Assembly (NCBI GenBank): GCA_041686775.1
Contig: JAWLDG010000013.1
Span: forward strand, 20,612 to 84,611
Direction of reading: 5' to 3'
From: Luteolibacter sp.
GTDB taxonomy: Bacteria > Verrucomicrobiota > Verrucomicrobiia > Verrucomicrobiales > Akkermansiaceae
DNA length: 64,000 nt
Numbering within the stretch: position 1 is the first letter of the stretch; every line of letters begins with the position of its first letter. The translations under genes and the position numbers were made by a program. Shown here in pieces: positions 7,016-21,330 of this stretch. The notes below the pieces were generated by a model. The model did no database searches. It was not told where the DNA came from and saw nothing but the letters and a program-made list of their open reading frames with translations.

Positions 7016-7059
7016 GACGGCATCTCTGCACGGAATGATCGTTCATTGTCAGGATTCGC

Positions 7060-10000
7060 CTATTGGCCGAGCAACCGGTTTCCGAACAGCAGGAACACGG
7101 CGAGCAGCAGGAAGAGCACGGCGAGGGCGATCTTGACGGTGAAGGTGTGCTTTCGCTGGAAGGAAATGAGCGATTCGGAGCGCAGGCCGCCGTAGGCGAG
7201 GAGGAAGATGACGATGAGCGGGAGGATGAAGGCGAGGTTGTAGATGGCGAGCCAGAGCACGGCGTCGAGGCGGCCCTGGTGGATCTGATAGACGATGGGC
7301 GCGTAAACCTGGCCGGTGCAGGCGAGTTCGAGGAACGAAATGACGATGCCGGAGAGGAAGGCGGCGATGACGAAGCGGCGGGCGCGCGCGCCGCTGCGGA
7401 TCACGCCGCGGATGCGGTCCTTGAGCATGGCGGGGAGTTGGAGGGTCATCTCGTCCATGCGGCCGGCGCGGGCGCTCAGGGCGTCGCGGAACGAAAGCGC
7501 GGCGGCGACCAGTGCGAGCGCGGCGAAAACGAGATTGAGCCACTTTTGCAGTCCGCCGATGCGGGCGTGGAGCACGTCGAGAAACTGATGGAAGATGAAT
7601 CCCGCCGAGAAGTAGGCGAGGAACACGGCGGAAATGAAGGCAAAGCCTGTTAGAAGCATTTCGCGCGGCGTGCGGCGCGCGATCTGGAGGTAGGACAGGA
7701 AGAAGATGATGGTGGCGAAAGCGCAGGGGTTGATGCCGTCGAGCAGGCCGGCAATGAGCACCACCGGCAGGGTGAGCGCCTGATAGCGACGGTCCACCTC
7801 GCGCTCCGCCTCAACCGCCTCGGCGGTTTCGATTTCGCGCCACGAATCGTCCTGATCGATGGCCATGGTGTCGGCCAGCAACTTGGTCACGGCGGCGGGG
7901 GTGATTTCCGGGCCGATGACGAATCCCGCCTGGGTGAAAATCGCCGGCGCGACCGTCTGGCGGGTGGATGGGACATCGAGACGGTTGCAGAGCGCCTGGT
8001 TGAGCACGGTGCCATCGGGCGAGAGGATGTTGTGCTCGATCACGCGCAGCAGCGGGAAGTCGCCGCGCAGGCTGTCGAGCATCTGGCGGGCCTTGGCGCA
8101 GTCGGCGCAGCCGGGTTTGAGGAAATAGACGACATCGAGCGATTCGCGTACGATTTCCCGGTCGTCGTTTTTCTCCGGTGCCAGCAGCGGTCCATCGGTT
8201 GTTTCGGAGTCCGGCACGGCGGCCTTGGCGAGATCGGCGAAGGTGAAGAGGCCGTTCGCGAGTCCCGGATTGACGCGTGCGTTGAGGAGCTTGAGCTTGT
8301 CCGAATCGATCGTGGAGGTGTCGATCACGGTGAGCAGGGGACGCAGCGCGGGGGTGGCGCGTTCGGCGTTTTCCTCGAGCCAATCGGCGATGCGCCGGGC
8401 GGAGTTGTTGTCCTTCGGTTGTTGCGGCAGGAGTTTGGCGAAGGCGTCGAAGTCGATGGACGAACCGCGGGTGAGCAGGGCGAACGAGGACTCGAAGCGG
8501 ACCAGCGGCGAGGGGTCGGTGGCGGCGAGTTTGCCCAAGAGGGCGGTGGTTTCCTCATTGATCCGCGGCGGGGTGGCATTGCGGCCATAGACGTAGTGGT
8601 TGTCGCGCGTCGAGAGGGCATCGGTGAAGTAGTGTTGCCACGAATAGTTCTGGCGGATGACGCGGTCCGGCAGGACGGCGCGGACCAGCGCCTCGGGGTC
8701 TTCGGCGATGGCGGCGGCGGCTTTGTTGAGGTCGGCCGTGCGCAGGCTGAGCAGCGCGTGCCACGCGGCGCGGCGGACGAGAGGTTCGGCGCTCTTGGTG
8801 TTTTGATCTAACAATCTCCGTACGGATGTATCCGCGCAGTGGCGGGCGGCGACGCAGGCGAGCACCTTGAGCGGCACCTCCGCCTGCGTGTCGCCGAGCA
8901 CTTCGACGCACCACGGGCGCATCATCGACGACATCGAGCGGGCGATGGATTCGAAGCGGTAATCGTAAGCCTCGTTCGGTTGCAGCGGCGCGGCGGGATC
9001 GCTGAGGTCCTCGAAGACCAGCGAGATGAGCGCCTTGGCCTGCTCGTTGGAAAGCGCGCAGCGGATCGCGGCCGAGCGGACTTCCGCCACCGGATCGCGA
9101 AGCAGCGCGGTGAGCAGCGGCAACGCGCCGGCGGACGAGGGTTCATACAACTGATAGCAGATGGTCGTTTTGCGGGAGGTGTCGTAATCCGGCAGTTCTT
9201 CGAGGAGTTTGGCATATCCCTCGTCGTGGCCTGCGCGGGCGAGTTGCAGCGCAGCGTGGAATCGCTGGCCGGGCGAGCTTTCGGGCGTGAGCCGGGCTTT
9301 GAGCGCGACGAGAAGTTCGCCCATGTCGGATTGCGGCAGGGATGGAAGCAGCGCGGAGTTCTCCGATGCCTCGCCGAAGGGGACGAGGAAGGCGTCGTAG
9401 AGCGGATCGAGCGCGGTGGGTTCGCGCGATCCTTGGATAAGTTCGGCGACCGTGAGCAGGCGGCGATCGACCGCGCCACCTTTCGACGGCGGCAGTCGAA
9501 GGTTTTCCAAAATGACATCGGCCTTGGCGGGTGCCGCGTCGTCCTTCAGCGCGGCGACCAGCAGGCCGAGCGTGGCGGGGAGTTTGACGTGATCGTCGTC
9601 GGCAGCGAGCGCGCGCAGGGCGATGCAGGCGACGTCGGTGTCGGAATCGGCGGCGAAGCGCTGGAGCAGTTCGACCGGCGGCGAGCTTTCCGAAATGGCG
9701 CGGACGGTCGCCATGCGGACTTCGGCGGGTGAGGCATCGAGCGCGGCGAGCATTTCGGCATCCGGCTTGCGTTTCATGGCACCGTAGGCCGCGAACACCA
9801 TCGGGATCATCGCGGGGTCGTCCGCCATCTTGCGTTTCAACTGCGGCAGGGCGTCGGTGGCCGCGAGTGCGACGCAGGCCTTGATGGCGGCGGAGCGGAC
9901 GAACTCGTCGGGATCGTCGAGCAAGGCGACGGCCCTCCCGCGTGCCGCGCGGGTCTTGCGTTTCTCGATGTATTCGAGCGCGGCGGCGCGGACCCGCCAG

Positions 10001-11109
10001 CGTTCGTCGTCGAGTAGGGCGATGACCGGCGCGTCGCTCCCGGTGGTTTTCGCTCCGCTGCCGGAAGAGAAGGGTTCGCCGCTGCCGGAAACGAAGATCG
10101 ATGCCTGGATGGCGGTGATGAGCAGGTCCTCGTCCAGGTGGTCGAGGAACCGGGCGATGAGCGAGGCGCTTGCATGGGTGCGGATGTCCTTGAGCCGGCG
10201 CAGCGCGCCGTGGATCACGTTGACGTCCGGCTCCTTGGTTAGAAGAGGCGCGAGCAGATCCACCGCAGGCTCGCCGCCGGCGACGAGCATGGCATCGATG
10301 GCGGTTTCGCGGACCAGCGGGTCGTTGTGAGTGATGAAATCACGCAGGATCGGCACGGCGGACGGACCGCTTGAGCGAATGGTTCCGAGCGCGGCGAGCA
10401 ATTGGTCGCGGTTTCCGAACGCGAGGTGGCGGGCGAGCGTGGACGCCTGGTCGCCGAAATGGCGGGCGAGCGTGATCTGATACTGCGCCTCGCGGATGCG
10501 CGCGCGCGATCCGGCGGGCAGGGTGGGGGTTTCCTGGAGGAAGGTCTCGAGATAACCGACGGCGGGCAGCCCCTCGGTTTGCCACATGCGGCGGGCACGG
10601 GCGGCCATGTCGTTGTCGCCGACGAGCAGGTCGCGCAGCCAGGCGCGGCGCTGGTCGTCGCTGAAAAGGCCGTCGCGGTCGGTGGTTTTCTTGCCTGTCC
10701 ACGCGCGCCAACGCGCGAGCGCGGCGGTGTTTTCGGGCGACTCGGCGGGCGTCCATGGATTGTAGCCGAGATCGCCGCCGGCCATTTCCTCCAACAGCTC
10801 CAGGGAAGCGAGGCGCACGGCGAGCAGCGGGTGGTCGAGCAGGGCGACGAGCGCCTGGACGGGCGGTTCTTCGGCTTCGAGGATGGCCTCGCGGATCAAC
10901 GGCCGGTCCTCGGACGAGGCGAGGCGCGGCAACACCTCGGCGAGCGTGCGGACATCGAGCGTGCCGGCGCGGAAACGGGTGAACGCCTCGTCGGATGGGT
11001 TTGGGGTTTCGGCAGCCGGTGGGGCGGGCTGAAGCCCGCGCTCCATTTCCTCATCCTGGGCGTGGCAGAAGCAAGTGGCGGCGAGCGCGGCTAACAGGAT
11101 GCGAGGCAT
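7060..11109 (-). CDS. Large fusion protein: signal peptide, HEAT/ARM-like repeats, thioredoxin-fold CxxC domain, and a C-terminal DsbD_2-type membrane domain
   Basis: ORF 7060..11178. I prefer the ATG at 11109 (MPRILLAALAATCFCHAQ is a signal peptide). There are many HEAT-like units (DPLVRETAIDAM, RWRVRAAALEYI, DEFVRSAAIKA, DPVAEVRSAAIRCA). The thioredoxin-like segment is VVYFLKPGCADCAKARQMLDSL. The C-terminal TM region carries GLLDGINPCAF and FLELACTGQVY motifs. Confidence 0.75.
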   Translation of the reverse strand: MPRILLAALAATCFCHAQDEEMERGLQPAPPAAETPNPSDEAFTRFRAGTLDVRTLAEVLPRLASSEDRPLIREAILEAEEPPVQALVALLDHPLLAVRLASLELLEEMAGGDLGYNPWTPAESPENTAALARWRAWTGKKTTDRDGLFSDDQRRAWLRDLLVGDNDMAARARRMWQTEGLPAVGYLETFLQETPTLPAGSRARIREAQYQITLARHFGDQASTLARHLAFGNRDQLLAALGTIRSSGPSAVPILRDFITHNDPLVRETAIDAMLVAGGEPAVDLLAPLLTKEPDVNVIHGALRRLKDIRTHASASLIARFLDHLDEDLLITAIQASIFVSGSGEPFSSGSGAKTTGSDAPVIALLDDERWRVRAAALEYIEKRKTRAARGRAVALLDDPDEFVRSAAIKACVALAATDALPQLKRKMADDPAMIPMVFAAYGAMKRKPDAEMLAALDASPAEVRMATVRAISESSPPVELLQRFAADSDTDVACIALRALAADDDHVKLPATLGLLVAALKDDAAPAKADVILENLRLPPSKGGAVDRRLLTVAELIQGSREPTALDPLYDAFLVPFGEASENSALLPSLPQSDMGELLVALKARLTPESSPGQRFHAALQLARAGHDEGYAKLLEELPDYDTSRKTTICYQLYEPSSAGALPLLTALLRDPVAEVRSAAIRCALSNEQAKALISLVFEDLSDPAAPLQPNEAYDYRFESIARSMSSMMRPWCVEVLGDTQAEVPLKVLACVAARHCADTSVRRLLDQNTKSAEPLVRRAAWHALLSLRTADLNKAAAAIAEDPEALVRAVLPDRVIRQNYSWQHYFTDALSTRDNHYVYGRNATPPRINEETTALLGKLAATDPSPLVRFESSFALLTRGSSIDFDAFAKLLPQQPKDNNSARRIADWLEENAERATPALRPLLTVIDTSTIDSDKLKLLNARVNPGLANGLFTFADLAKAAVPDSETTDGPLLAPEKNDDREIVRESLDVVYFLKPGCADCAKARQMLDSLRGDFPLLRVIEHNILSPDGTVLNQALCNRLDVPSTRQTVAPAIFTQAGFVIGPEITPAAVTKLLADTMAIDQDDSWREIETAEAVEAEREVDRRYQALTLPVVLIAGLLDGINPCAFATIIFFLSYLQIARRTPREMLLTGFAFISAVFLAYFSAGFIFHQFLDVLHARIGGLQKWLNLVFAALALVAAALSFRDALSARAGRMDEMTLQLPAMLKDRIRGVIRSGARARRFVIAAFLSGIVISFLELACTGQVYAPIVYQIHQGRLDAVLWLAIYNLAFILPLIVIFLLAYGGLRSESLISFQRKHTFTVKIALAVLFLLLAVFLLFGNRLLGQ

Positions 11110-11380
11110 GGCATGCGACGCTGCATTATTAAAACGCGCCGAAGAAACCGCTGAATCACTGGGAACCGCTGAATTCACTGGATCGGTTTATGTGATGACG
11201 TCGGCATTTCCGGCACGCCTTTCAGGGTGCACATCAAAGGGAATCGCAAACCCGGGGTGGTCGTCGCTATCGCACCTCGACCCCGGGCTGTCTTCTGTAA
11301 TCCTTTCAGGATAATGATAATTGGCTTTTTCATTTTCCAATCCATGCAGACATTAGGCTGAATGGCTGTATTCCATTATA

Positions 11381-12028
11381 TCAATGCAGCAGCGCATAGG
11401 CTAGGATGTTGGCGTTGATTTCCATGGCATTGCGGATCTCATTGCCGCCGCAGCAGCAGCAGCCTTCGGCGTTCGAACTGTCGTTGAGTCCTTCCTTGGT
11501 ATAAACCACGACGATCTTGCCGTTGTGGGTGAGACCTTTCAGCGAGACATCCGGGCCGGCGTGGCTGAGCTTGAGTTCCTTGATGCTGAAAATCGTGCGG
11601 AAGATCTCATGGCTGAGCGGGATGTCCTTGAGGCAGTCGTTGCCGAAGATCGCCTTGATCTCGCGCTCGAAGGAACGCGCCCAGGCCTCGTTCGAGCAGG
11701 ATGCGGAGGCGAGCAGGAAGCCGCCGTTTTCGAGATAGCGTTTGAGGTTTTCCCGCTCCTTGGCGGTGAGCAGGAAATCGCTCTCGCCGGTCATGATGAC
11801 GAAGGGGATGCGGAACAGTTCGTCGTCGGCGAGCTTCACCGCCTTGAACCGGCGCTGGGTGGCGATCGAGGTTTTCTGTTGGACGGTGGTCAGGAACTCG
11901 TCGGAGAAACACTTCGAGGTGCGGGTGCCGGCGTAGATGAGATTGCCGCATTCGACGGCACCCTCCTTGGCAAGGGTAAATGCTGAAATGCTTAAAAGCT
12001 GAAATGCTGAAATGAGGAGGAGTTTCAT
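11381..12028 (-). CDS. DUF4159 domain protein (secreted)
   Basis: ORF 11381..12028. Characteristic C-terminal EGCCCCGGNEI motif and a signal peptide. It sits downstream of the MoxR/DUF58/BatA genes, as this family typically does. Confidence 0.8.
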   Translation of the reverse strand: MKLLLISAFQLLSISAFTLAKEGAVECGNLIYAGTRTSKCFSDEFLTTVQQKTSIATQRRFKAVKLADDELFRIPFVIMTGESDFLLTAKERENLKRYLENGGFLLASASCSNEAWARSFEREIKAIFGNDCLKDIPLSHEIFRTIFSIKELKLSHAGPDVSLKGLTHNGKIVVVYTKEGLNDSSNAEGCCCCGGNEIRNAMEINANILAYALLH

Positions 12029-12041
12029 GGTTTTCTTGATA

Positions 12042-14771
12042 TCACGGGGTCAGGAATTTGCGAACGGCGTCGCGGTAGGGTTCGGGGATCAATTCGGGGT
12101 CGGGTGCGGATGAGGAGGTCTGGCGGGTGTCGGTGGGCGGCAGGGTGCCGGACTCGGCGGTGTCCGGCAGCGGTGCCGCGCCGGCGGCCGGGCCATCGCC
12201 GCCATCGCCGCCGGAACCGGGTGCCTGACCGAACTGCATGCGGTTGGGGCCGAGCATCGGCATGTGCATCGGGAAGCCGCCGCCGGGCATGCCCTGGCCG
12301 CCGAGAGCATCGCCCTGGCCGGGTGCGCCGTCGCCGCCGGGGTTTTGTTGGAGCAGGCCTTCGAGGAGTTGTTGGAGGGCTTGATCGAAATCGGGAATGT
12401 TGAACTCGGGTGCATCGCCGCGGGCGGCATTGCAGAACGGGTTGTCCTGCTTGAGCAGGCGTTCGAGCGCGGCACGGGCGAGTTCCGCGTTGTGGAAGGT
12501 TTCGGCGGTGCGGCCGTCGTCGGCATTGCGGGTGGCGGCGTCCATGTGGGTTTCCGGCTCGGCGATATCGAGTTCCAGCAGGAACTGCGAGGCGGATTCG
12601 GCGAGCGGCGCGAGTTGCGGCATGTCCTGCGGCACTGCCTCGATGCGGCGTTTGAGTTCGGCCTTGAAGGAATCGAGCGCTTCGCGGTTCTTGCGCTGCG
12701 TTTCGCCTAACAGAGGGAGCTGGCGGCGGTTGGCATCCATGCCGAGGCGCAGTTCCTCGACGAGCCGGCCGAGACGTTTCACCAAGCTTTCCTGGTTCTC
12801 GTAAATGCGGCGGAATTTTGCCGCCATTTCCAACAGGCGCGCGGCCTCGGCGGCGAGGTCGGCTTGTTGCATCAGTTGCTGTCCCTGTTGCTCGCGCTGG
12901 CCGAGGCGTTCCAACAAGGGTTCGAGCGCGCGGCGGAGCTTTTCGTCATCCATTCCGGGATCGAGGCCGCGCAGGGCGTCGAGGTTTTCGCGCAGAGCCT
13001 CGGCGTTTTTCTCCGCGAGTTCGGCGAGTTGTTTCTCCAACTCGAAGGCGGGGAAATCGTCGGTGAGTTTGTTCATCAACTCGGCCGCTTGTTGGTGGGC
13101 CTCGCGCGCCGCTTCGAGTGCGGCTTCGCGTTGTTCTTCGTTCTCCGCCTCCCGGAGTTGTTCGAGCGTCTTGCGTGCCCGCTCGATGGCATCGCGCGCG
13201 GCATCGAAGCGGGCGCGGAATTGATCGATGGTCGTGCGGGCGCGGATGTAGGCGGCGTATTCGTCCTCGGATATGATGCGGACCCGCGAGATCTCCGACG
13301 CGCCCTGGCCCAGCAGCGAGGGGTTGTGGTCGGAGGCGTCGAGCATCAACTCGATCGTCTGGCCGGGTTCGAGACCGAGTTCGGCGAGGTCGAGATTTTC
13401 GCGGAAATCATAACTGCGTTCTGTTAGAGAGGGAGCGACGAGTCGCGAGCGGTCGCGGAAACCGGCGAGCGTGCGCACGAAATGGATGCGTTGCAGCGCG
13501 AAGTCGTCGCTGGCGCGGCCGGCCACCGGGATCTTCGATTGCGGGGTGGCGAGCATCATCGACGGCGGGCTGTCGAGCACCACGTCCGGCGCCTGGTCGG
13601 GCATGCAGCGGAACGCGAGGTCGAGCGGGCGCGGCGAAGGCGTGCCCCGCAGATCGCGGATGGTCGCGCTGAGACGTCCGGAGCGGGTGGCGGTCCAGGT
13701 GAAAGTGACGCCGTGCGATGATGTGACATCGCCGTCAATGGTGACAGCCTGCGGAGTTTCGCCGGGTGCGGCGGCCGGGGTGAACACACATATGCCGCCG
13801 GACAGCGGGCGGTTGCTGGTGAGTTCCAGCGCGATTTCCGATCCCTCGACTGCGGCGATCTCATTGGTGTCGAGCGCGAACGACGATGGCGGCAGGTTGG
13901 TGTAAACCGGCGGGGTGATGCGCACCTGGCCACCGAGGATGTTGGGTTCCAGCAGGATTTCCACCGGCGTCCATGCCGAGCGCGCGCGACCGCTGGCGAA
14001 GGCGACCTCCACCGGCTCCGTTAGATTTTCCAGGGTGCGCGAGTAGCGCTGCGGGCTTTCGCGGAACGCGTCGCGGCGGAGGATTTCGCCGGTGCGGCTG
14101 CGGCGTACGAGGCACTCGACGGTTTCCTCCGGAGTGCCGCCGGTGATTTCCGTGGCGATGAGGATTTCACCGCCATAGACGACGGCGGGCTTGGCGGGCT
14201 CTATCGCGAAACGCAGCGGACTGTATGGCGGGATGTCGCCGGACGGGTGGAGCAGACGCTGCACGATCACCGCAAACGGCGCGGGCGCGGCGATGCGCAG
14301 GATGCCGGTTGCAATTACCGGCACGAAGATTACGAGCGCAGCGATCTTCAACACGCGTGCATCGATGATGCATCGCGCGGGCAGGGCTGCGAGCGCTTCG
14401 GCGGCTTGGGCGAGACTGCGTTCTGTGAGGAAGCGCGACATCGGTGTGTCGGCGGAATTTCCGTCCAGCGACAACGCGGCGGATGCGGGCGCGCGCTGCG
14501 AGGAAAGCGCATGGTCGGCCCGGCGCGCGGCTTCGCTGGCGGAAACGCGCAGTGCGCGGAACATCATCACCAGTCCGCCAAGGATGGCGATGGCGGCGAG
14601 GACGACGGTGATCCTCGTGCGCGCCGTGGCTTCGAAGGCCAGCGCCGCGTCCACCAGCCCGAACACCAGCCACAACAAACCCGCGACGCCGAACGCCGCG
14701 ATGGCGGCCGCAAGCAACCGCGACGCGCGCAGCAGCGTGCGGACCCGGCGGAGTTGTTGGCGGTAGGTCAT
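12042..14771 (-). CDS. DUF4175-like membrane protein with a long coiled-coil and a Gly/Pro-rich low-complexity tail
   Basis: ORF 12042..14819. I prefer the ATG at 14771 (MTYRQQLRRVRTLL...). It has N-terminal TM helices, an E/R/A/L-rich coiled-coil region, and a C-terminal G/P-rich tail. The position between a BatA/VWA gene and DUF4159 matches the usual arrangement. Confidence 0.6.
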   Translation of the reverse strand: MTYRQQLRRVRTLLRASRLLAAAIAAFGVAGLLWLVFGLVDAALAFEATARTRITVVLAAIAILGGLVMMFRALRVSASEAARRADHALSSQRAPASAALSLDGNSADTPMSRFLTERSLAQAAEALAALPARCIIDARVLKIAALVIFVPVIATGILRIAAPAPFAVIVQRLLHPSGDIPPYSPLRFAIEPAKPAVVYGGEILIATEITGGTPEETVECLVRRSRTGEILRRDAFRESPQRYSRTLENLTEPVEVAFASGRARSAWTPVEILLEPNILGGQVRITPPVYTNLPPSSFALDTNEIAAVEGSEIALELTSNRPLSGGICVFTPAAAPGETPQAVTIDGDVTSSHGVTFTWTATRSGRLSATIRDLRGTPSPRPLDLAFRCMPDQAPDVVLDSPPSMMLATPQSKIPVAGRASDDFALQRIHFVRTLAGFRDRSRLVAPSLTERSYDFRENLDLAELGLEPGQTIELMLDASDHNPSLLGQGASEISRVRIISEDEYAAYIRARTTIDQFRARFDAARDAIERARKTLEQLREAENEEQREAALEAAREAHQQAAELMNKLTDDFPAFELEKQLAELAEKNAEALRENLDALRGLDPGMDDEKLRRALEPLLERLGQREQQGQQLMQQADLAAEAARLLEMAAKFRRIYENQESLVKRLGRLVEELRLGMDANRRQLPLLGETQRKNREALDSFKAELKRRIEAVPQDMPQLAPLAESASQFLLELDIAEPETHMDAATRNADDGRTAETFHNAELARAALERLLKQDNPFCNAARGDAPEFNIPDFDQALQQLLEGLLQQNPGGDGAPGQGDALGGQGMPGGGFPMHMPMLGPNRMQFGQAPGSGGDGGDGPAAGAAPLPDTAESGTLPPTDTRQTSSSAPDPELIPEPYRDAVRKFLTP

Positions 14772-14811
14772 GGGATGATTTGAGATATGCAATTTGAAAT
14801 TTGAAATTGGA
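14772..14811 (-). repeat. 40-nt AT-rich tandem-word intercistronic spacer
   Basis: Coding strand: TGA-TCCAATTTCAAATTTCAAATTGCATATCTCAAATCATCCC-ATG. Tandem ATTTCAA words, about 30 percent GC. No Shine-Dalgarno-like purine tract. Confidence 0.8.
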
Positions 14812-17055
14812 TCAAGCAAGCCCGGAGCGGCGGCGGATGAACCACTCGGCGGCGAGCAACAGGGCTAGCAGGAGGGCGGTGGGTGCGTTGGTCCACGAAG
14901 CCTGCCACACGGCACCGGCGTCGCGCGCGGTTGGCGGCGTGGGTTTGACATGTTCGGCGAGAAACGCGTCGAACGCATCCACGGTGATGGATTTTCCGCC
15001 GGTGGCCTCGGCGAGGTTTTTCAAGAATGCGGGGTCGGGCGTGAGATCGTCGTTTTCGCTCGGCGCTGCGGGCACGGTGATGAGTGTCTCGGGCGCGGGC
15101 GGCGCTTCGTCTCGCGGATCGATTAGGCGGATACGCCAATCGCCGGGTGTCTCCGGCGTGAGGGTGGCGCGCCACAGCGGGCGCTCTGACGGGCTGGAGA
15201 TGGCGGCCGGGCCGATGCGTGTGGGTTCGCCGTCCGGGCCGGTGATTTCCAGCAGCGGCTGCGGCGCGGGATCGGCCCCGCGATAGGACATGGTGAGCGC
15301 CACCGTGCTGCCCGCCTCGGCACGGCCGGACGGTGCGCGCAGCGAGAAATCATGGCCCGGCAGGAATTCCGAATACGCCGCCATCCACTGGATGAGCTGG
15401 GTCCAGAAATCCTCGTAGCAGTTTCCCAACTCGCGCGCGTCCGGGAAAAAATCCCATTTCCACAAACCATCGCCATTGATCATCGCCACCACGCCCTGGC
15501 CGTAGCGGCGGACCAGTAGCGCGGGGAATTTTCCGGATGAGGAAAACTCCGAACTGGCCGGGAGGTCCGGCAGGCCATCGGCCAGCACGCGCGTGAATGG
15601 CTTCACCATCGAAACCTGCCGCGCGTCCTGCAAGGGTGGCAGCGAGGTCCACAACGAGGCGTCCGGCGCGGCCAGCGCCTGGCCGAAGAGCCCGGCGCTT
15701 TCGCCATCGCGGTTCGGCGCGAAGCGGAACGAGCCGATCGTCGCCGGTCCCCACACCACCGGTTCGAGCGGCTCGATGGCCGCGCTCGCCGCGGTGGTGG
15801 CTCGTCCGCGCGAGAACAACAGCGCGCCGCCGTGGTCGCGGACGTATGCACGCAGCAATGCGGCGCGTTCGTCTGTTAGAAACGAGTCCACGTTTTTCCC
15901 GAACACCACCAGATCGTAACGCGAGAGTTCCTCGAGCGAGTCGGGGAAGACCGGGTGCTCGGTCTCGGCGTTTTCGCGCTCGCCGGAATCGATGCGGAAA
16001 TAGCGCTTTTCCGACAAGCGGTGGATCGAGCGCAGTTCCATGTGCGTCTGCTGGCGGAGCAGTTGCGCGAGGAACTTGCTGTCCCAATACGGCGCGCCCT
16101 CGGCGAGGAACACGCGGGTGCGGGCGTCGAGCACGCGGACGTGGAACTGCGAGCGGTTGTTGGCCGGACGCAGTTCGCCATCGGCCGCCGGCACATCGAT
16201 CGACCACCCGCTGGACGCGGCCGGGGCGGGCACTTCGAAGGTGCCGGTGACGCTTGCGCCGGGTGCCACGTCGAGCGCGATTTCATCGAGCGCACCGCCA
16301 TCGGCGTCGCGCAAGGTGGCGGTGGCGCGCAGCGCGGGCAGGCCGGTCGATTCCAGCGCGAAGGGAACGCGCAGCGATTGACCGGCGAAGGTGGTGAACG
16401 CTGCGCGCGGTTGACGCAGGGCGAGATCGGCCGGCTCTCCCGTGGCACCGATGGTCACACTGTGCACCGGTGTTTCGCCGCTGCGGGCGCGGAGGGCGAG
16501 TGCTTCAAGCGCCGCGGCATTGGGGGCGGTCGTCTCGCGGCCGTCGCCGGCCACCAGCACGCCGGCGAGCGAGCGGCCGCTGGCGCTGTTTTCCTCCAGT
16601 GCGCGGCTCACTGCGGCGACGATGCGCGTGGATTCGCCATCGGATGAGGGAAGGTCTTCATCGCCCTCGGCGAGTGCCGGCAGCAGGTCGCCTGCGTAGG
16701 GATGGATGCGCACGGGGATGTCGTGACGTTCCGCGCGCGCGGTAAATGATTTGGTCAAACGTGCGGCGACCGCGGCCCTGGTTTCACCCGCGTTGTCGGC
16801 CGGTTGATTCATTGATTCCGAGGAATCAACCAGTATCAACCATGGCTTCGCCTCCTGCTCGGTCGGGTTCACCCAGGATCCCGGATTCAACAACAAGCCG
16901 AACACCGCCGCCACCGCGCAGGTCCGCAACGCCAGCAGCGCCACGCGCCGGCCGGTTGTCAGATCGAGCGAGCCACGCCACGCGCCCGCCAACACCACCG
17001 CCAGCACCACGATGGCGAGCGGAATGAGGATGGAGAGCGGCAGGGCGGGGGACAT
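14812..17055 (-). CDS. Membrane protein with a VWA-like and a GATase1-like (DUF1355-type) region, Bat-operon type
   Basis: ORF 14812..17055. N-terminal TM helices, a MIDAS-like WLILVDSSESM segment, and a C-terminal TM anchor (ALLLALLLAAEWFIRRR). Confidence 0.6.
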   Translation of the reverse strand: MSPALPLSILIPLAIVVLAVVLAGAWRGSLDLTTGRRVALLALRTCAVAAVFGLLLNPGSWVNPTEQEAKPWLILVDSSESMNQPADNAGETRAAVAARLTKSFTARAERHDIPVRIHPYAGDLLPALAEGDEDLPSSDGESTRIVAAVSRALEENSASGRSLAGVLVAGDGRETTAPNAAALEALALRARSGETPVHSVTIGATGEPADLALRQPRAAFTTFAGQSLRVPFALESTGLPALRATATLRDADGGALDEIALDVAPGASVTGTFEVPAPAASSGWSIDVPAADGELRPANNRSQFHVRVLDARTRVFLAEGAPYWDSKFLAQLLRQQTHMELRSIHRLSEKRYFRIDSGERENAETEHPVFPDSLEELSRYDLVVFGKNVDSFLTDERAALLRAYVRDHGGALLFSRGRATTAASAAIEPLEPVVWGPATIGSFRFAPNRDGESAGLFGQALAAPDASLWTSLPPLQDARQVSMVKPFTRVLADGLPDLPASSEFSSSGKFPALLVRRYGQGVVAMINGDGLWKWDFFPDARELGNCYEDFWTQLIQWMAAYSEFLPGHDFSLRAPSGRAEAGSTVALTMSYRGADPAPQPLLEITGPDGEPTRIGPAAISSPSERPLWRATLTPETPGDWRIRLIDPRDEAPPAPETLITVPAAPSENDDLTPDPAFLKNLAEATGGKSITVDAFDAFLAEHVKPTPPTARDAGAVWQASWTNAPTALLLALLLAAEWFIRRRSGLA

Positions 17056-17095: not shown

Positions 17096-19087
17096 TCAGC
17101 GGGCCGAGCGGAGGTGGATGATGGATTCTGTTAGGAGGAAGGCGAGGGCGAGGAGGGCGAGCCATGGCCAGAGCGGGATGCCGTTGGCGAGCGCGGCCTT
17201 GCGGACGAGCGTGTCCGCGCCGGAATCGATGCGGCCGATGGCCGGGACTTCGGCGACCGTGCGGAGATCGGATTCGATTTCCGGGAAATTGACCGGGCTG
17301 GCGGCGAGTGTCTGGCCGGAGGAAATCCAGCGGTGGATTCCAGGCCGGGCCGGTCCGGGCCACGACCAGGTGGTTCCTCCGGCATCGTGCGATTCGGTTA
17401 GATCGAGCGGTTTTCCATCTGGATCGTCGAGACGGATGGTGGCAGCGAGGTCGGGGTTGGCGGACGACCATGACAGGGCGCTTCCGGATGGAACTTCCAT
17501 CGCATCATTGCCTGCGCGCGGTCTGAGGTGCAGCAGGATTTCCGCGATGGCGGGCAGGAAATTCCCCTGCATCGGCCAATCGGTCTGCGCCGGATTGAGC
17601 GGCAGGTTCCACAGCACGACCGGCGCGCCGTCGGTGAGGAATTCGAGAATCGCCGGGACGCGGTCGGCATACCAGGCAATGGCGCGTCCCGCGGTTGCGG
17701 CGGGCATGGCGATGCGCTCGCGGAAGGTTCCCGCGAAGGGATTGCCGAAATCCCCGCCGCGGAACAACGCAATGGACGGGTGGTTTTCCTCGGGGAGCAC
17801 GTTCCAGCCGTCGGCGCGGGTTTCGCGGGCGAAGGATGCGGGCAACTGGTTTTCCGGACTTCCCGTCAACTCCGCCAGCGCGGCCGGCGGACATCCGGGC
17901 GTGGGACAAACGATGACCGTGGCCCCGGCGGCGCTGAGCGAGCGGAGTTCTCCGGCGTTCTTCCCGTCCCATGCGGCGATGAACCGGTAGTCCGGTGCGC
18001 GTCCTCCGCTCTCCGCGGAGGTGCTTTCGAGCCATGGCAAGGCGGCGGCCAGTTTGCCTAACAACTCCGCCGCGGGCTCCGCGCCGCCGGTATCGATCGC
18101 CAGTCGCAGCGACTCGCGCACCGACACCACCGTGTGACGCGCGTCGTCGTCCGGAAAGGCGTCTGCCTCGGTGGCAATGGTGACCGGCAGCGGCCCCGCG
18201 CCGGCGGCGCGCAGCGGGAATGCGATTTCCGTTTCTCCCCAGGCGGGGATTTCGGCGGCCTGCGTCTGGCGCGCGCCATCGGCATCCATGGTGAGATTCG
18301 CGCGCACGGCTTCCGGCGAGAAATTCCGGACGCGGGCGAGCAGGGTGATTTCCTGACCCACCACCGGAGCGGACGGCTGGGCGAGCAGGCCGGTGACCGC
18401 CACGTTGGCCGGCGCGGAGGAGGCGACCTGTTGGGCGTGCACATTGACATCGGGCGGCATCTGGATTTCCAGATCGCGCCAGGCGGATTGCTGGAAATCG
18501 GATAGAATCACCAGCTCGCGGCGACCGCGCGCGGCGGCGAGTTGGCGCAGTGCCGCATCGATCGCCGGGCTGGCCGGGCCGGGCTCGGGCACCGGCCGAG
18601 CTTCGTCGAGTTTTTCCAACAGGAAGGAAATGTTAGGGCTCGGCTCGGGAAACACGGCGTCAGGGGAGGCATCGATCCAGATCAGGTTGGCGGTCGTCGG
18701 ATTGAGCGATTCGAGGTATTCCGCGGCACGGGCCTGTGCCACATCGAAGCGGCTGCCCGCCCCCTCGCGCGCGGCCATCGAGGCCGAGCGGTCGATCAAC
18801 ACCACCACCGCCACGTCCTCGCCGGGCAGCGCCGCCGATTTGGAAATGACCACCGGCGCGATGAATGCCCCGGCAAGCGCGAGCAACGCCAGGGTGCGCA
18901 GGATCAACAACCAGCGGTCCCGCGGCCGCCGCACCCGCGCCGACGAACGCATGACTCTCCGCAGGAACTCGATGTTGGAAAACCGATAGACCGGTGGTCG
19001 CGCCCGCGAGATCAAATGCACCAGCAAAGGCACACCGGCCAATCCGAGCAGGCCGATCAATGCGGGGTGTTGGAGGAGGAAGGTCAT
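17096..19087 (-). CDS. BatA-domain (N-terminal double-TM) / VWA protein
   Basis: ORF 17096..19108. I prefer the ATG at 19087 (MTFLLQHPALIGLLGLAGVPLLVHLI is a typical BatA N-terminus). The first 7 codons of the longer ORF lie inside an intergenic tandem repeat. VWA MIDAS segment VVVLIDRSASM. Confidence 0.8.
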   Translation of the reverse strand: MTFLLQHPALIGLLGLAGVPLLVHLISRARPPVYRFSNIEFLRRVMRSSARVRRPRDRWLLILRTLALLALAGAFIAPVVISKSAALPGEDVAVVVLIDRSASMAAREGAGSRFDVAQARAAEYLESLNPTTANLIWIDASPDAVFPEPSPNISFLLEKLDEARPVPEPGPASPAIDAALRQLAAARGRRELVILSDFQQSAWRDLEIQMPPDVNVHAQQVASSAPANVAVTGLLAQPSAPVVGQEITLLARVRNFSPEAVRANLTMDADGARQTQAAEIPAWGETEIAFPLRAAGAGPLPVTIATEADAFPDDDARHTVVSVRESLRLAIDTGGAEPAAELLGKLAAALPWLESTSAESGGRAPDYRFIAAWDGKNAGELRSLSAAGATVIVCPTPGCPPAALAELTGSPENQLPASFARETRADGWNVLPEENHPSIALFRGGDFGNPFAGTFRERIAMPAATAGRAIAWYADRVPAILEFLTDGAPVVLWNLPLNPAQTDWPMQGNFLPAIAEILLHLRPRAGNDAMEVPSGSALSWSSANPDLAATIRLDDPDGKPLDLTESHDAGGTTWSWPGPARPGIHRWISSGQTLAASPVNFPEIESDLRTVAEVPAIGRIDSGADTLVRKAALANGIPLWPWLALLALAFLLTESIIHLRSAR

Positions 19088-19104
19088 GGTGGATTGAACA
19101 TCGA

Positions 19105-19128
19105 ACATCGAACGTCCAACATCGAACG
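19105..19128 (-). repeat. 24-nt element GTTCGATGTTGGACGTTCGATGTT (copy 1), part of a longer TTCGATGTT tandem tract at 19096-19132
   Basis: The reverse complement of 19105-19128 matches 62237-62260 at 23 of 24 positions. It lies 18-41 nt upstream of the BatA-like start (19087) in sense orientation. Confidence 0.8.
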
Positions 19129-19358: not shown

Positions 19359-20231
19359 TCATTCCCTAAGCCTGTCAAAGAGCGAGAAATACGATTCACC
19401 GGTGGAGGCGAGGGCGTAGTCGGCGTTGCGGGAGGTGGCGAGGGAGCGGAGGGCGCGGGAGTGGGTGAGGAGTTCGCGGTTCCAGGCGTCGCGGATGGTT
19501 TGCGGGTGGGCGGTCAGTTGGTGGCCGGTTTCCATGTCGGTGAAGCGCGAGAGGCCGCGGTCTTCGAGTTGGATTTCGGCGGGGTCGAGGATGTGGAAGA
19601 GGTGGATGCGGAAGCCGCGGTGCAGATAGGGGTTGAGCGAGCGGAAGAGGGCGGCGGGGTCGTCGAAGAAATCGGACAGGATGACGAGCGTGCCCTTGCG
19701 GCGCAGCAGCGGCTGGGCGCGGGCGAGGGTATCGACGATCGATGTGCCGGAGCCGGGCTGGTTGTTCTCGAGCGTGTTGAGCAGGTCGTTGAGGTGCTGG
19801 CGGGTCGAGGCGGGCGGCACGAAACGGCGGATGCCCTGGTCGAAGAGCGTGAGCGAAACGCGGTCGTTGCGCGAGACGACCCACCAGGCGAGCGCGGCGG
19901 AGAAGAACGAGGCGTATTCGAGCTTGTTGAGCCTGCTGTCATTTCCGCAGAAACCCATCGACGCCGAGCAATCGAGGAAGATATGGCATTCCAGGTTGGT
20001 TTCCTGCTCGAAGGTGCGGAGGAACAACTTGTCGTTGCGCGCGAACACCCGCCAATCGACGCGCGCGGGGTCGTCACCGGGGACGTATTGGCGGAACTCG
20101 TGGAACTCGATCGACGACCCGCGTTGGTGCGAGCGGTGGCGGCCGGCCAGATAGCCCTCGACCATCGCCTTGGCTCCGAACTCATAGTTCTTGAGCCGGC
20201 GGATATCGGCGGGATCGAGGAAGCGGGGCAT
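19359..20231 (-). CDS. DUF58 domain protein (MoxR partner)
   Basis: ORF 19359..20231. Canonical DUF58 motifs: GRHRSHQRGSSIEFHEFRQYVPGDDPARVDWRVFAR and FLDCSASM. Confidence 0.9.
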   Translation of the reverse strand: MPRFLDPADIRRLKNYEFGAKAMVEGYLAGRHRSHQRGSSIEFHEFRQYVPGDDPARVDWRVFARNDKLFLRTFEQETNLECHIFLDCSASMGFCGNDSRLNKLEYASFFSAALAWWVVSRNDRVSLTLFDQGIRRFVPPASTRQHLNDLLNTLENNQPGSGTSIVDTLARAQPLLRRKGTLVILSDFFDDPAALFRSLNPYLHRGFRIHLFHILDPAEIQLEDRGLSRFTDMETGHQLTAHPQTIRDAWNRELLTHSRALRSLATSRNADYALASTGESYFSLFDRLRE

Positions 20232-20342: not shown

Positions 20343-21329
20343 TTAGTTAATGGAATCGACGAGTTTGGCGATGATCTGGTCGGTGGTGATGCCTTCGCCG
20401 GTGGCGTTGTAGTTGCCGATGATGCGGTGGCGGAGCACGGGCAGGGCGACGTCGCGGACTTCCTCGACGGAGGCGTTCGGGTTGCCGCGCAGCAGGGCGA
20501 GCGCGCGGGCGGCGCGGGCGAGGCATTGCGACGCGCGCGGTCCCGCGCCGTAGGCGATGTATTGTTTCACCTCCTCGGTCGCGTGCGGCGAGTCGGGGCG
20601 GGTGGAGTGGACGAGTTTGAGGATCGACTGGATCACGGAGTCGGGCAGGGGGACGTCGATGGCGGCTTCCTGCAAGGCGATGACACGCCGGGCGTCTAAC
20701 AGAGTCTCAGCCTGTGGCGCGGTGTGACCGGTGGTGCGCTTGATGATCTCGGCCTCCTCGTCCATGCCGGGATAGCCGATGTTGAGTTGGAAGAAGAAGC
20801 GGTCGAGCTGCGCCTCAGGCAGCGGATAGGTGCCTTCGTGCTCGATCGGGTTCTGGGTGGCGAAAACGATGAACGGTTCTTCCAATCGCCGTGTCTGGCC
20901 GTTCACGGTGACTTGTTTTTCCTGCATCGCCTCCAGCAGCGCGGCCTGGGTTTTCGGCGGCGTGCGGTTGATTTCATCGGCGAGGATCAGATTGGCGAAA
21001 ACCGGTCCCGGCACGAACTGGAAGTTGCGTTCGCCGGAACCGCCGGTCTGTAAAATTTCCGAGCCGACGATGTCGGTGGGCATCAGGTCCGGAGTGAACT
21101 GGATGCGCTGGAATTTCAGGCCGAGGATGCGGCCGAGCGTGGCGACGAGCAGTGTTTTGGCGAGCCCCGGCACGCCGACGATGAGGCAGTGGCCGCGGCA
21201 GACGAGCGAGGTGAGGAGCTGCTCGACGATTTCCTCCTGGCCGACGATCACGCGCGCGGTCTCGCGGCGGATGTTGGTGACGGTTTGCTGGATTTCCTCC
21301 CACTGCTGGGCGGCGTTGGTATCGGACAT
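20343..21329 (-). CDS. MoxR-family AAA+ ATPase
   Basis: ORF 20343..21590. The true start is the ATG at 21329 (MSDTNAAQQWEEIQ...). Walker A GVPGLAKT, MoxR-typical IQFTPDLMPTDIVG, and Walker B ILADEINR. Confidence 0.92.
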   Translation of the reverse strand: MSDTNAAQQWEEIQQTVTNIRRETARVIVGQEEIVEQLLTSLVCRGHCLIVGVPGLAKTLLVATLGRILGLKFQRIQFTPDLMPTDIVGSEILQTGGSGERNFQFVPGPVFANLILADEINRTPPKTQAALLEAMQEKQVTVNGQTRRLEEPFIVFATQNPIEHEGTYPLPEAQLDRFFFQLNIGYPGMDEEAEIIKRTTGHTAPQAETLLDARRVIALQEAAIDVPLPDSVIQSILKLVHSTRPDSPHATEEVKQYIAYGAGPRASQCLARAARALALLRGNPNASVEEVRDVALPVLRHRIIGNYNATGEGITTDQIIAKLVDSIN

Positions 21330-21330
21330 G

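Follow-up and report, generated by a model that had tools for sequence, protein, structure and literature searches.

A HEAT-repeat protein with a thioredoxin-fold domain and a CcdA-like membrane domain in Luteolibacter sp.: a candidate thiol-disulfide reductase at the end of a predicted MoxR/VWA operon

The window analysed here is a stretch of 64,000 nucleotides from Luteolibacter sp. (GenBank assembly GCA_041686775.1, contig JAWLDG010000013.1), and all positions refer to it. On its minus strand, at 7060..11109, the window encodes a protein with the domain order signal peptide, HEAT array of about 900 residues, thioredoxin-fold CxxC domain and six-transmembrane (TM) domain with two cysteines. 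We consider it fairly probable that this protein is a self-contained transmembrane thiol-disulfide reductase of a new domain order, whose HEAT arm would hold the secreted DUF4159 protein encoded next to it, and which would act as the reductant-delivering last subunit of the system encoded by the operon. The protein is real and widespread, is without a printed characterisation in the literature searched, and has a specific candidate partner. New here, as read from the gene arrangements compared, are the predicted operon context and the invariable adjacency of DUF4159 in the informative loci of HEAT form. The parts of the gene are as follows.

7060..11109, minus strand: whole HEAT-thioredoxin-membrane gene, an intact open reading frame (ORF) of 1349 amino acids (aa) plus stop; collinear homologues of 1300-1590 aa
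11056..11109, minus strand: predicted signal peptide, residues 1-18 (MPRILLAALAATCFCHAQ), with a basic n-region, a hydrophobic core and small residues ahead of Q19
8260..10992, minus strand: HEAT-repeat solenoid, residues ~40-950 (Pfam HEAT_2 and HEAT; repeat signatures)
9700..10407, minus strand: predicted DUF4159 docking face, HEAT residues ~235-470 (interface residues of the complex prediction)
7855..8148, minus strand: thioredoxin-fold domain, residues ~988-1085 (AlphaFold2 (AF2) model, VIA-align, Foldseek)
8098..8109, minus strand: active-site CxxC, C1001-A-D-C1004 (codons translate to CADC)
7063..7776, minus strand: six-TM membrane domain, residues ~1112-1349 (hydropathy; AF2 predicted local distance difference test score (pLDDT) 87, predicted template-modelling score 0.77; hhalign)
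7723..7725, minus strand: C1129 in TM1, motif DGxNPCAF, invariant, aligning with the TM1 cysteine of DsbD_TM and DsbD_2
7318..7320, minus strand: C1264 in TM4, motif ELxCTGQxYxP, invariant, aligning with the TM4 cysteine of DsbD_TM and DsbD_2

Gene anatomy and cysteine motifs

Translation of the ORF places the start at ATG 11109 and the stop at 7060-7062, giving 1349 residues. An upstream in-frame GTG at 11178 would extend the protein by 23 residues; ATG 11109 is favoured because homologues begin with signal-like N-termini. The first-pass annotation had delimited the gene correctly and had not seen that it lies on the minus strand; a plus-strand reading of 7060-11109 is ruled out, this frame being packed with stops. 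The strings that it quoted, MPRILLAALAATCFCHAQ (residues 1-18), YFLKPGCADCAKARQML (around C1001/C1004), GINPCAF (C1129) and ELACTGQ (C1264), are all found in the translation. Its sketch of a signal peptide, HEAT repeats, a thioredoxin-like CxxC segment and a polytopic C-terminus was borne out by the translation, Pfam, the AF2 model and hydropathy. A sequence search at E <= 0.001 returned 621 proteins of comparable length, and HEAT families are precomputed on all 120 listed of these; judged by such homologue counts, the frame is not a chance ORF.

Tandem HEAT repeats clear the Pfam thresholds, which places the gene product among the HEAT-repeat proteins. Six stretches match HEAT_2 (E 3.3e-28; 98.2 bits, with the cut-off at 27.7), the HEAT match (E 7.8e-14) reached 50.9 bits with a cut-off of 23.5, and about ten repeat signatures of the LxDPxxxVRxxA type were found between residues 91 and 880. 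Among 38 aligned full-length forms, the array holds no conserved cysteine pair; its sole fairly conserved cysteine, C495, is present in 82% of these.

The AF2 model of residues 961-1349, built from a 27-sequence alignment, reached a mean pLDDT of 83, with values of 94-98 across the soluble domain. VIA-align superposed this domain on 7q3j_A (Z 10.2, root-mean-square deviation 1.9, 82 residues) and on dozens of thioredoxins and glutaredoxins at Z 8-9, and Foldseek returned thioredoxins at probability 1.00. Pfam Glutaredoxin was matched when the C-terminal 389 aa were scanned alone (E 1.4e-5, 25.6 bits against a cut-off of 22.9). The CxxC stands where helix 1 begins and a cis-Pro loop is present, so that the domain has the features of a thioredoxin-fold oxidoreductase. 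The profile of the C-terminal module, which comprises the thioredoxin-fold and membrane domains, retrieved weak thioredoxin and glutaredoxin chains from the PDB; a match to the CxxC of a cytochrome c555 was judged spurious.

C1001, C1004, C1129 and C1264 are invariant in all 27 module sequences and likewise in all 38 full-length forms. The contexts GCxxC, DGxNPCA and ELxCTGQxYxP, as well as P1055 at the cis-Pro position (APAIF), are invariant in 27/27 modules, and the CxxC is kept in 321 of 321 homologues with full coverage. The conservation of the three cysteine motifs named in the first-pass annotation is evident from these counts. The second variable residue of the CxxC is E or D in 289 of the 321 homologues (C-x-[ED]-C), a dipeptide that is unusual among thioredoxin-fold proteins and may tune the redox potential.

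Hydropathy indicates six TM segments between residues 1112 and 1347, in agreement with the AF2 helices. The remote homology of this domain was assessed by profile-profile comparison, which required family alignments on both sides. Aligned with hhalign, 29 family members matched 29 canonical DsbD_TM regions from genomes of the same phylum at E 7.1e-5 (probability 63%, 203 columns), the alignment spanning all six helices with both cysteines in register, and 18 DsbD_2 regions at E 3.5e-6 (probability 88%, 182 columns). As a calibration, DsbD_TM against DsbD_2 gave E 2.6e-8 (probability 95%, 157 columns). The real template scored 38.1, compared with 12.8 for the reversed one and 11.4-24.0 for 10 column-shuffled ones, these controls lying at E 0.012-0.67. 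Pfam DsbD_2 was matched directly by 2/27 family members (best E 4.9e-5). Remote homology thus extends over the whole six-helix domain and includes the redox cysteine pair of TM1 and TM4, and the profile comparisons assign the membrane domain to the DsbD/CcdA clan as a distant relative, outside Pfam DsbD_2. The DsbD_2 label of the first-pass annotation stands as remote homology and falls as Pfam membership. Fold searches with the two-domain model were dominated by the thioredoxin domain. For the membrane-only model, the solved CcdA 5vkv topped the Foldseek list by template-modelling score (0.38/0.41, others 0.1-0.2) at E 0.87 and probability 0.51, and VIA-align listed helical-bundle noise alone (top Z 8.0).

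By a crude hydrophobicity test, 145 of 185 long homologues have a signal-like start, and for most of the remainder the start looks mis-called; natural short forms carry a signal peptide directly ahead of the thioredoxin domain. Over 29 sequences, the mean number of lysines plus arginines is 2.8, 8.7 and 2.3 in loops 1-2, 3-4 and 5-6, and 1.0, 1.0 and 0.1 in loops 2-3, 4-5 and the C-terminal tail, which by the positive-inside rule puts the N-terminal end of TM1 outside. Hydropathy, AF2 helices and charge counts agree on a topology of the CcdA type, with six TM helices and the N-terminus outside. In single-TM variants of the HEAT protein, a basic tail follows the TM helix. The signal-like starts, short forms, loop charges and basic tails support a periplasmic HEAT array and CxxC domain, as the first-pass annotation had proposed, with the six-helix domain predicted in the inner membrane. 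A thiol-disulfide relay is the best-supported reading of the cysteine motifs; the electron-transfer role suggested in the first-pass annotation remains the best one.

Operon context and the DUF4159 protein

Comparison of loci suggests that the HEAT gene is the last of a conserved operon, MoxR-DUF58-BatA/VWA-GATase1_like-DUF4175-like-DUF4159. Neither the operon nor the DUF4159 neighbour was mentioned in the first-pass annotation. The following genes lie upstream of the HEAT gene.

11381..12028, minus strand: secreted DUF4159 protein, 215 aa (Pfam DUF4159 E 4.1e-29); proposed partner or client
12042..14819, minus strand: 925-aa membrane protein, DUF4175-like (no Pfam match; atlas feature score 0.97; syntenic)
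14812..17055, minus strand: 747-aa protein with two N-terminal TM helices, GATase1_like (PF07090)-type (atlas feature score 0.98; weak ThuA match; syntenic)
17096..19108, minus strand: BatA N-terminal double-TM plus VWA protein (BatA E 1.2e-10, VWA_2 E 2.3e-7, TIGR02226 E 2e-11)
19359..20231, minus strand: DUF58 protein (Pfam DUF58 E 1e-43)
20343..21590, minus strand: MoxR-type AAA+ ATPase (AAA_3 E 7.7e-62, AAA_lid_2)
21331..24243, minus strand: 970-aa exported protein with a signal-like N-terminus (no Pfam or NCBIfam match)

DUF4159 lies directly upstream of the HEAT gene in all nine long-form loci that were fetched. The whole series from MoxR to DUF4159 is present in six of them; one locus is cut inside BatA, one is cut just past DUF4159, and the remaining one (G033) keeps the DUF4159-HEAT pair without the other operon genes. 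No operon gene was found near the short, HEAT-less forms in 9/9 loci (about 20 kb fetched each; 9 kb for L048). A further, independent set of 80 loci comprised 42 of HEAT form and 38 without HEAT. DUF4159 is upstream in 36/36 HEAT-form loci with at least 3.6 kb of upstream sequence, the other six being too short, and upstream of none of the HEAT-less forms (0/38 loci).

These counts bear on the possibility that the protein is a general periplasmic reductase, serving cytochrome c maturation or repair, whose HEAT arm binds many clients and which merely adjoins the operon. The occurrence of short forms in many unrelated contexts, including Chloroflexota, Thermodesulfobacteriota and other phyla, would fit such a role, and so would the gap of about 270 bases between DUF4159 and the HEAT gene. 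A scan of 6800-11500 found no promoter-like sites, and terminator-like sites there are at background (5 vs 3.0 expected). The contrast between 36/36 and 0/38 loci argues against a general reductase, as do the persistence of the DUF4159-HEAT pair in G033, where the rest of the operon is elsewhere, and the complex prediction described below, which passes with all controls at 0.00. Moreover, a canonical DsbD_TM protein, found in each of the 41 genomes sampled from the phylum, would cover the general duties. We regard this role as quite unlikely.

The DUF4159 protein stands out by its cysteines. In the phylum sample, 18/18 orthologues are small and have a signal-like N-terminus; C40, C111 and a GCCCCGG run (residues 189-195; C190-C193) are invariant in all 18, and C27 is present in 17/18. 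Across the nine loci, C27, C40, C111 and C190-193 are conserved in 9/9, and no conserved cysteine was found in the other envelope products (BatA/VWA and the 747-, 925- and 970-aa proteins). Exported operon products with conserved cysteines are thus limited to DUF4159, which leaves no other candidate for a thiol client within the operon. CCCCGG is found in all 120 listed of 1582 DUF4159 homologues, and distant DUF4159 domains fused to BatA-type proteins are without the CCCC run. Eighteen genomes with a CCCC-type DUF4159 include 11 with the full HEAT form, four with an anchored form described below and three in which no HEAT gene was found (G057, G289 and G035, the contig of the last ending shortly after DUF4159). 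The presence of CCCC was dropped as a marker of co-occurrence with the HEAT gene, as 18/18 orthologues carry it.

The docking of DUF4159 was predicted from HEAT residues 40-840 (40-row alignment) and mature DUF4159 (18-row alignment). The complex reached an interaction prediction score from aligned errors (ipSAE) of 0.66, and the best of three controls 0.00; the ipSAE mark is reached by 116/157 solved complexes and 2/215 mismatched pairs, a rough guide here since our own alignments were used. Contact agreement between runs was at least 82%, and pLDDT of the partner at least 84. On the HEAT side, 6/24 interface residues (D235, E268, R304, D328, R372, F403) are at least 90% conserved, compared with a background of 67/801 over residues 40-840; on the DUF4159 side, the interface comprises residues 24-86 and 188. 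The prediction supports a model in which DUF4159 binds HEAT residues 235-470.

A partnership with DUF4159 would also be compatible with a redox sensor or an oxidase, in which the relay oxidises DUF4159 or reports the periplasmic redox state to MoxR/VWA. The direction of electron flow cannot be revealed by sequence, the acidic second residue in the CxxC dipeptide is unusual, and the Leptospira Bat study, in its accessible part, kept open a role in oxidative-stress sensing, perhaps as a periplasmic signalling complex (PMC3557215). Nonetheless, no quinone-binding or DsbB/VKOR-like features were found among the curated-library scans of the HEAT protein, and four adjacent cysteines would be hard to square with a structural disulfide as the product. 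A sensor or oxidase is, in our estimate, highly improbable.

The genes upstream of the HEAT gene share its strand, in the order 970-aa protein, MoxR, DUF58, BatA/VWA, GATase1_like, DUF4175-like, DUF4159 and HEAT gene. The latter is the last of the string because the downstream genes converge on the other strand. The string contains the Bat-type core, namely MoxR, DUF58 and BatA-N/VWA. Library scans detected no TPR or SH3 families of the BatB-E type, which we take to define the B. fragilis Bat operon, among the operon products; GATase1_like, DUF4175-like, CCCC-type DUF4159 and the HEAT protein are present instead. The label of the 925-aa protein is a lead only, DUF4175 being found on 44% of the members of one neighbouring cluster, and PF07090 is found on 44-76% of members in the clusters neighbouring the 747-aa protein. 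The 970-aa gene precedes MoxR in 4/6 loci reaching that far, and its product may be an eighth operon member. The MoxR ORF as listed overlaps this gene by about 260 bases; because tblastn alignments with homologues begin only at residues 71-92 (around residue 85), translation of MoxR probably starts far inside the listed ORF, well past the first GTG. On the other side of the HEAT gene, a subtilase at 4499-6160 on the plus strand (Peptidase_S8, E 6.6e-31) converges on its 3' end, as does a 390-aa ORF at 5739-6911 on the plus strand, with a weak DUF4082 match. These two ORFs overlap, so that one start or one ORF is probably wrong.

Distribution and architectural variants

In a HMMER search with the C-terminal module, 3567 cluster representatives passed E <= 0.001, of which 1036 also passed E <= 1e-30; the top matches were mostly 1300-1590 aa long. 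The module is present in 54/301 sampled genomes of the phylum, and in a frame of at least 1375 aa in 11 of these, this genome included; a motif scan of species genomes yielded at least 597 stretches. The HEAT form was found in Luteolibacter, Haloferula, Prosthecobacter, Verrucomicrobium, Roseibacillus, Opitutia, Puniceicoccales, Lentisphaeria and Kiritimatiellia. Homologues are named 'HEAT repeat domain-containing protein' at NCBI (Luteolibacter species and metagenome-assembled genomes of Verrucomicrobiota) and 'CcdA/HEAT repeat protein/glutaredoxin' at JGI. By these searches the architecture is common, occurring in hundreds of species of Verrucomicrobiota, Lentisphaeria and Kiritimatiellia. 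The fusion of HEAT, thioredoxin and membrane domains is thus not rare. The first-pass annotation had named a common and already characterised architecture as grounds for giving up its claim, and the first half of those grounds holds. No characterisation of the architecture or of DUF4159 was found in the literature searched (subscription journals being outside its coverage), where DUF4159 is mentioned once, in a Pfam database paper.

Among more distant long forms, 25/25 match HEAT_2, and 18/25 possess an extra N-terminal thioredoxin domain (12 with CxWC, 2 with CxW[ST] and 4 without motif). The Luteolibacter HEAT protein is without this domain, its residue 33 aligning with residue 157 of P0277. 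In four lineages (L112, L113, L114 and L199, from genomes G065, G281, G080 and G102), the HEAT array and CxxC thioredoxin domain are kept, and one or two TM helices replace the six-helix domain. This anchored form adjoins DUF4159 in G065, G281 and G080, and is located elsewhere in the genome in G102.

The short thioredoxin-membrane forms are 370-600 aa long, for instance in Ruficoccus amylovorans and Pelolinea submarina. They share the C-terminal module and its four invariant cysteines at 38-45% identity with the HEAT protein, but lack the HEAT arm, are never found beside DUF4159 or MoxR (0/9, 0/38) and reach far beyond Verrucomicrobiota, to Anaerolineae (Chloroflexota; e.g. Pelolinea submarina), Thermodesulfobacteriota, Poribacteria and others. 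Of nine short forms, three come after a protein of about 1700 aa with several thioredoxin domains and one adjoins CutA1; in E. coli, cutA adjoins dsbD.

The short forms of L041, L045 and L046 (G163, G079 and G277), which belong to one lineage and are 516-553 aa long, follow a Thioredoxin_7/Thioredoxin_2 protein of about 1700 aa and a DUF1573 protein. This gene set may form a separate periplasmic redox system.

A further variant, P0122 (558 aa; 15 member sequences on 3 contigs), has the N-terminal ~165 residues of DUF4159 joined to the linker before the thioredoxin-membrane module. Because both the CCCC end and the entire HEAT array are missing, it was rejected as a functional fusion; it looks like a deletion between neighbouring genes and would show adjacency only.

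Other members of the clan are present in the same genome. A canonical DsbD_TM protein is encoded elsewhere in the Luteolibacter genome (719-aa frame, G000:C12:24370-25008). The second DsbD_2 protein that the first-pass annotation had pointed out, at 2128-2826 on the plus strand, is real (E 9e-36) and stands directly after a FixG/CcoG-type 4Fe-4S protein at 287-1957 on the plus strand. These two genes form a cbb3-oxidase maturation context that has no relation to the HEAT gene.

The clan and the neighbours of its members also invite a reading in terms of metal handling, in which the CxxC and the membrane cysteines pass a thiophilic metal, the membrane domain being a permease of the LysE/DsbD clan, and MoxR/VWA loads it onto the CCCC of DUF4159. 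The only curated-library match of the membrane domain is a weak one, to the arsenical efflux permease ArsG (E 2.4e-4), the DsbD clan includes transporters, and the DsbD_2 protein of the window lies beside FixG/CcoG in the maturation context just described. MoxR/VWA pairs are known for metal-cofactor insertion, the CCCC run would be a plausible metal site, and the CutA1 that adjoins one short form is a divalent-ion tolerance protein. However, both membrane cysteines align with the redox cysteines of DsbD_TM and DsbD_2, and the soluble domain is a thioredoxin fold, with its CxxC at a helix start and an invariant cis-Pro, and not a ferredoxin-like metal-binding domain. The additional N-terminal thioredoxin domain of 18/25 distant relatives, 12/18 of which carry CxWC as in a disulfide relay, and the link of 3/9 short forms to proteins with multiple thioredoxin domains likewise speak for thiol chemistry. 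Metal transfer as the function of the protein therefore seems rather unlikely.

Proposed mechanism and relation to known systems

In the thiol-disulfide reductase that we favour, the signal peptide would export the HEAT solenoid and the thioredoxin-fold domain to the periplasm, and the six-helix domain would stay in the inner membrane. Reducing equivalents would pass from cytoplasmic thioredoxin to the membrane cysteine pair C1129 (TM1) and C1264 (TM4), by analogy with CcdA and DsbD, then to the periplasmic CxxC (C1001/C1004), and finally to a client on the HEAT arm, most likely DUF4159. The HEAT arm, without conserved redox cysteines, would be a docking platform, with the conserved face at residues ~235-470 holding DUF4159. 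The seven conserved cysteines of DUF4159, including CCCC, would be kept reduced in the oxidising periplasm, or readied for a metal or cofactor. The HEAT protein would thus deliver reductant as the last subunit of an envelope system made up of MoxR, DUF58, BatA/VWA, GATase1_like, DUF4175-like and DUF4159. Electron flow as such, its direction and the role of DUF4159 as client are points that we infer. A more specific version can be put forward tentatively, and we think it possible rather than probable: a dedicated reductant subunit of a MoxR/VWA 'Bat-like' machine, in which the HEAT arm clamps DUF4159, the relay keeps CCCC reduced and the AAA+/VWA components load or remodel it, for example with a metal or a thioether-linked cofactor.

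Several observations tell against the reductase proposed here. Neither Pfam DsbD_2 (PF13386) nor DsbD_TM (PF02683) matches the HEAT protein even at E <= 10, so that it stays outside the curated families, and a PF02683 search of its own genome misses the gene. The sole curated-library match of the membrane domain is the weak NCBIfam ArsG permease (E 2.4e-4; cut-off 200 bits). The module sequence profile retrieves no CcdA or DsbD chain from the PDB, hhalign of the module against the single DsbD_2 protein of the window was empty (probability 0.04, single sequence), and neither Foldseek nor VIA-align gave a significant CcdA fold match for the membrane-only model. The four anchored lineages, being without a CcdA-like domain, indicate that the membrane relay is dispensable in cis, and the canonical DsbD_TM protein could serve the same clients. 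CCCC-type DUF4159 occurs in G057 and G289 without a detectable HEAT gene, so that DUF4159 is not strictly dependent on the HEAT protein. The complex prediction is a matter of model confidence alone, only 1/18 interface residues on the DUF4159 side is at least 90% conserved, and the thioredoxin domain was outside the complex job, so that the CxxC is not placed near the CCCC run by the model.

Among known systems, the membrane domain is most readily compared with CcdA, the six-TM class of the DsbD superfamily (5vkv). Both have six TM helices, cysteines in TM1 and TM4 in register, the N-terminus outside and a thioredoxin-fold CxxC partner on the outer side. They differ in that the Luteolibacter domain is below the Pfam and NCBIfam thresholds and carries the motifs DGxNPCAFAT and ELACTGQVYxP, compared with PCxxP-type motifs in canonical sequences. 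In addition, the HEAT protein has its thioredoxin partner and a 900-residue HEAT arm fused in front, and its gene context is not cytochrome c maturation.

As outlined in PMC3322552, three classes of the superfamily have been published: DsbD, CcdA and ScsB. Like DsbD and ScsB, as they are described there, the HEAT protein would combine a membrane cysteine pair, a periplasmic thioredoxin-fold CxxC and a client-meeting periplasmic domain in one polypeptide (PMC3322552). In contrast to the order of alpha, eight-TM beta and gamma domains in that class definition, it has HEAT, thioredoxin fold and six-TM domain with nothing after TM6; both of its periplasmic domains are N-terminal of the membrane domain, whereas DsbD has one on each side, and it has six helices instead of eight (PMC3322552). 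The client-facing part is a HEAT solenoid without conserved redox cysteines, compared with the small redox-active alpha domain of DsbD and ScsB in that account (PMC3322552). The role of DsbD alpha could fall to the extra N-terminal thioredoxin domain in 18/25 distant relatives, which the Luteolibacter protein does not possess. A small cytosolic archaeal glutaredoxin with two HEAT repeats, as far as it is described in PMC9529593, has an architecture unrelated to that of the HEAT-thioredoxin-CcdA-like protein.

According to the account in PMC3557215, a role for Bat proteins in reducing periplasmic proteins or exporting reducing power was put forward in 1999, and the accessible part of this Leptospira Bat study reports no phenotype. 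The operon described here shares with the Bat operon of that account a MoxR AAA_3 ATPase, a DUF58 protein and a BatA N-terminal double-TM plus VWA protein in one operon, and the original proposal, keeping the periplasm reduced (PMC3557215), agrees with the function suggested for the HEAT protein.

Operons of the MoxR-DUF58-VWA ('Bat-like') type are widespread and have lacked a settled function since 1999. A thiol relay with a docking arm and one Cys-rich secreted protein would turn the vague idea of 'aerotolerance' into a specific, testable pairing. The DsbD superfamily would be extended past DsbD, CcdA and ScsB by a new domain order, a six-helix core and a non-redox HEAT client arm, and GCx[ED]C, DGxNPCAFAT and ELACTGQVYxP can serve as an annotation signature for the family. 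If the proposed reading is true, the HEAT protein would represent a fourth architectural class of the DsbD superfamily, and would provide the first molecular link between a Bat-type operon and the export of reducing power, which was proposed in 1999 but never explained.

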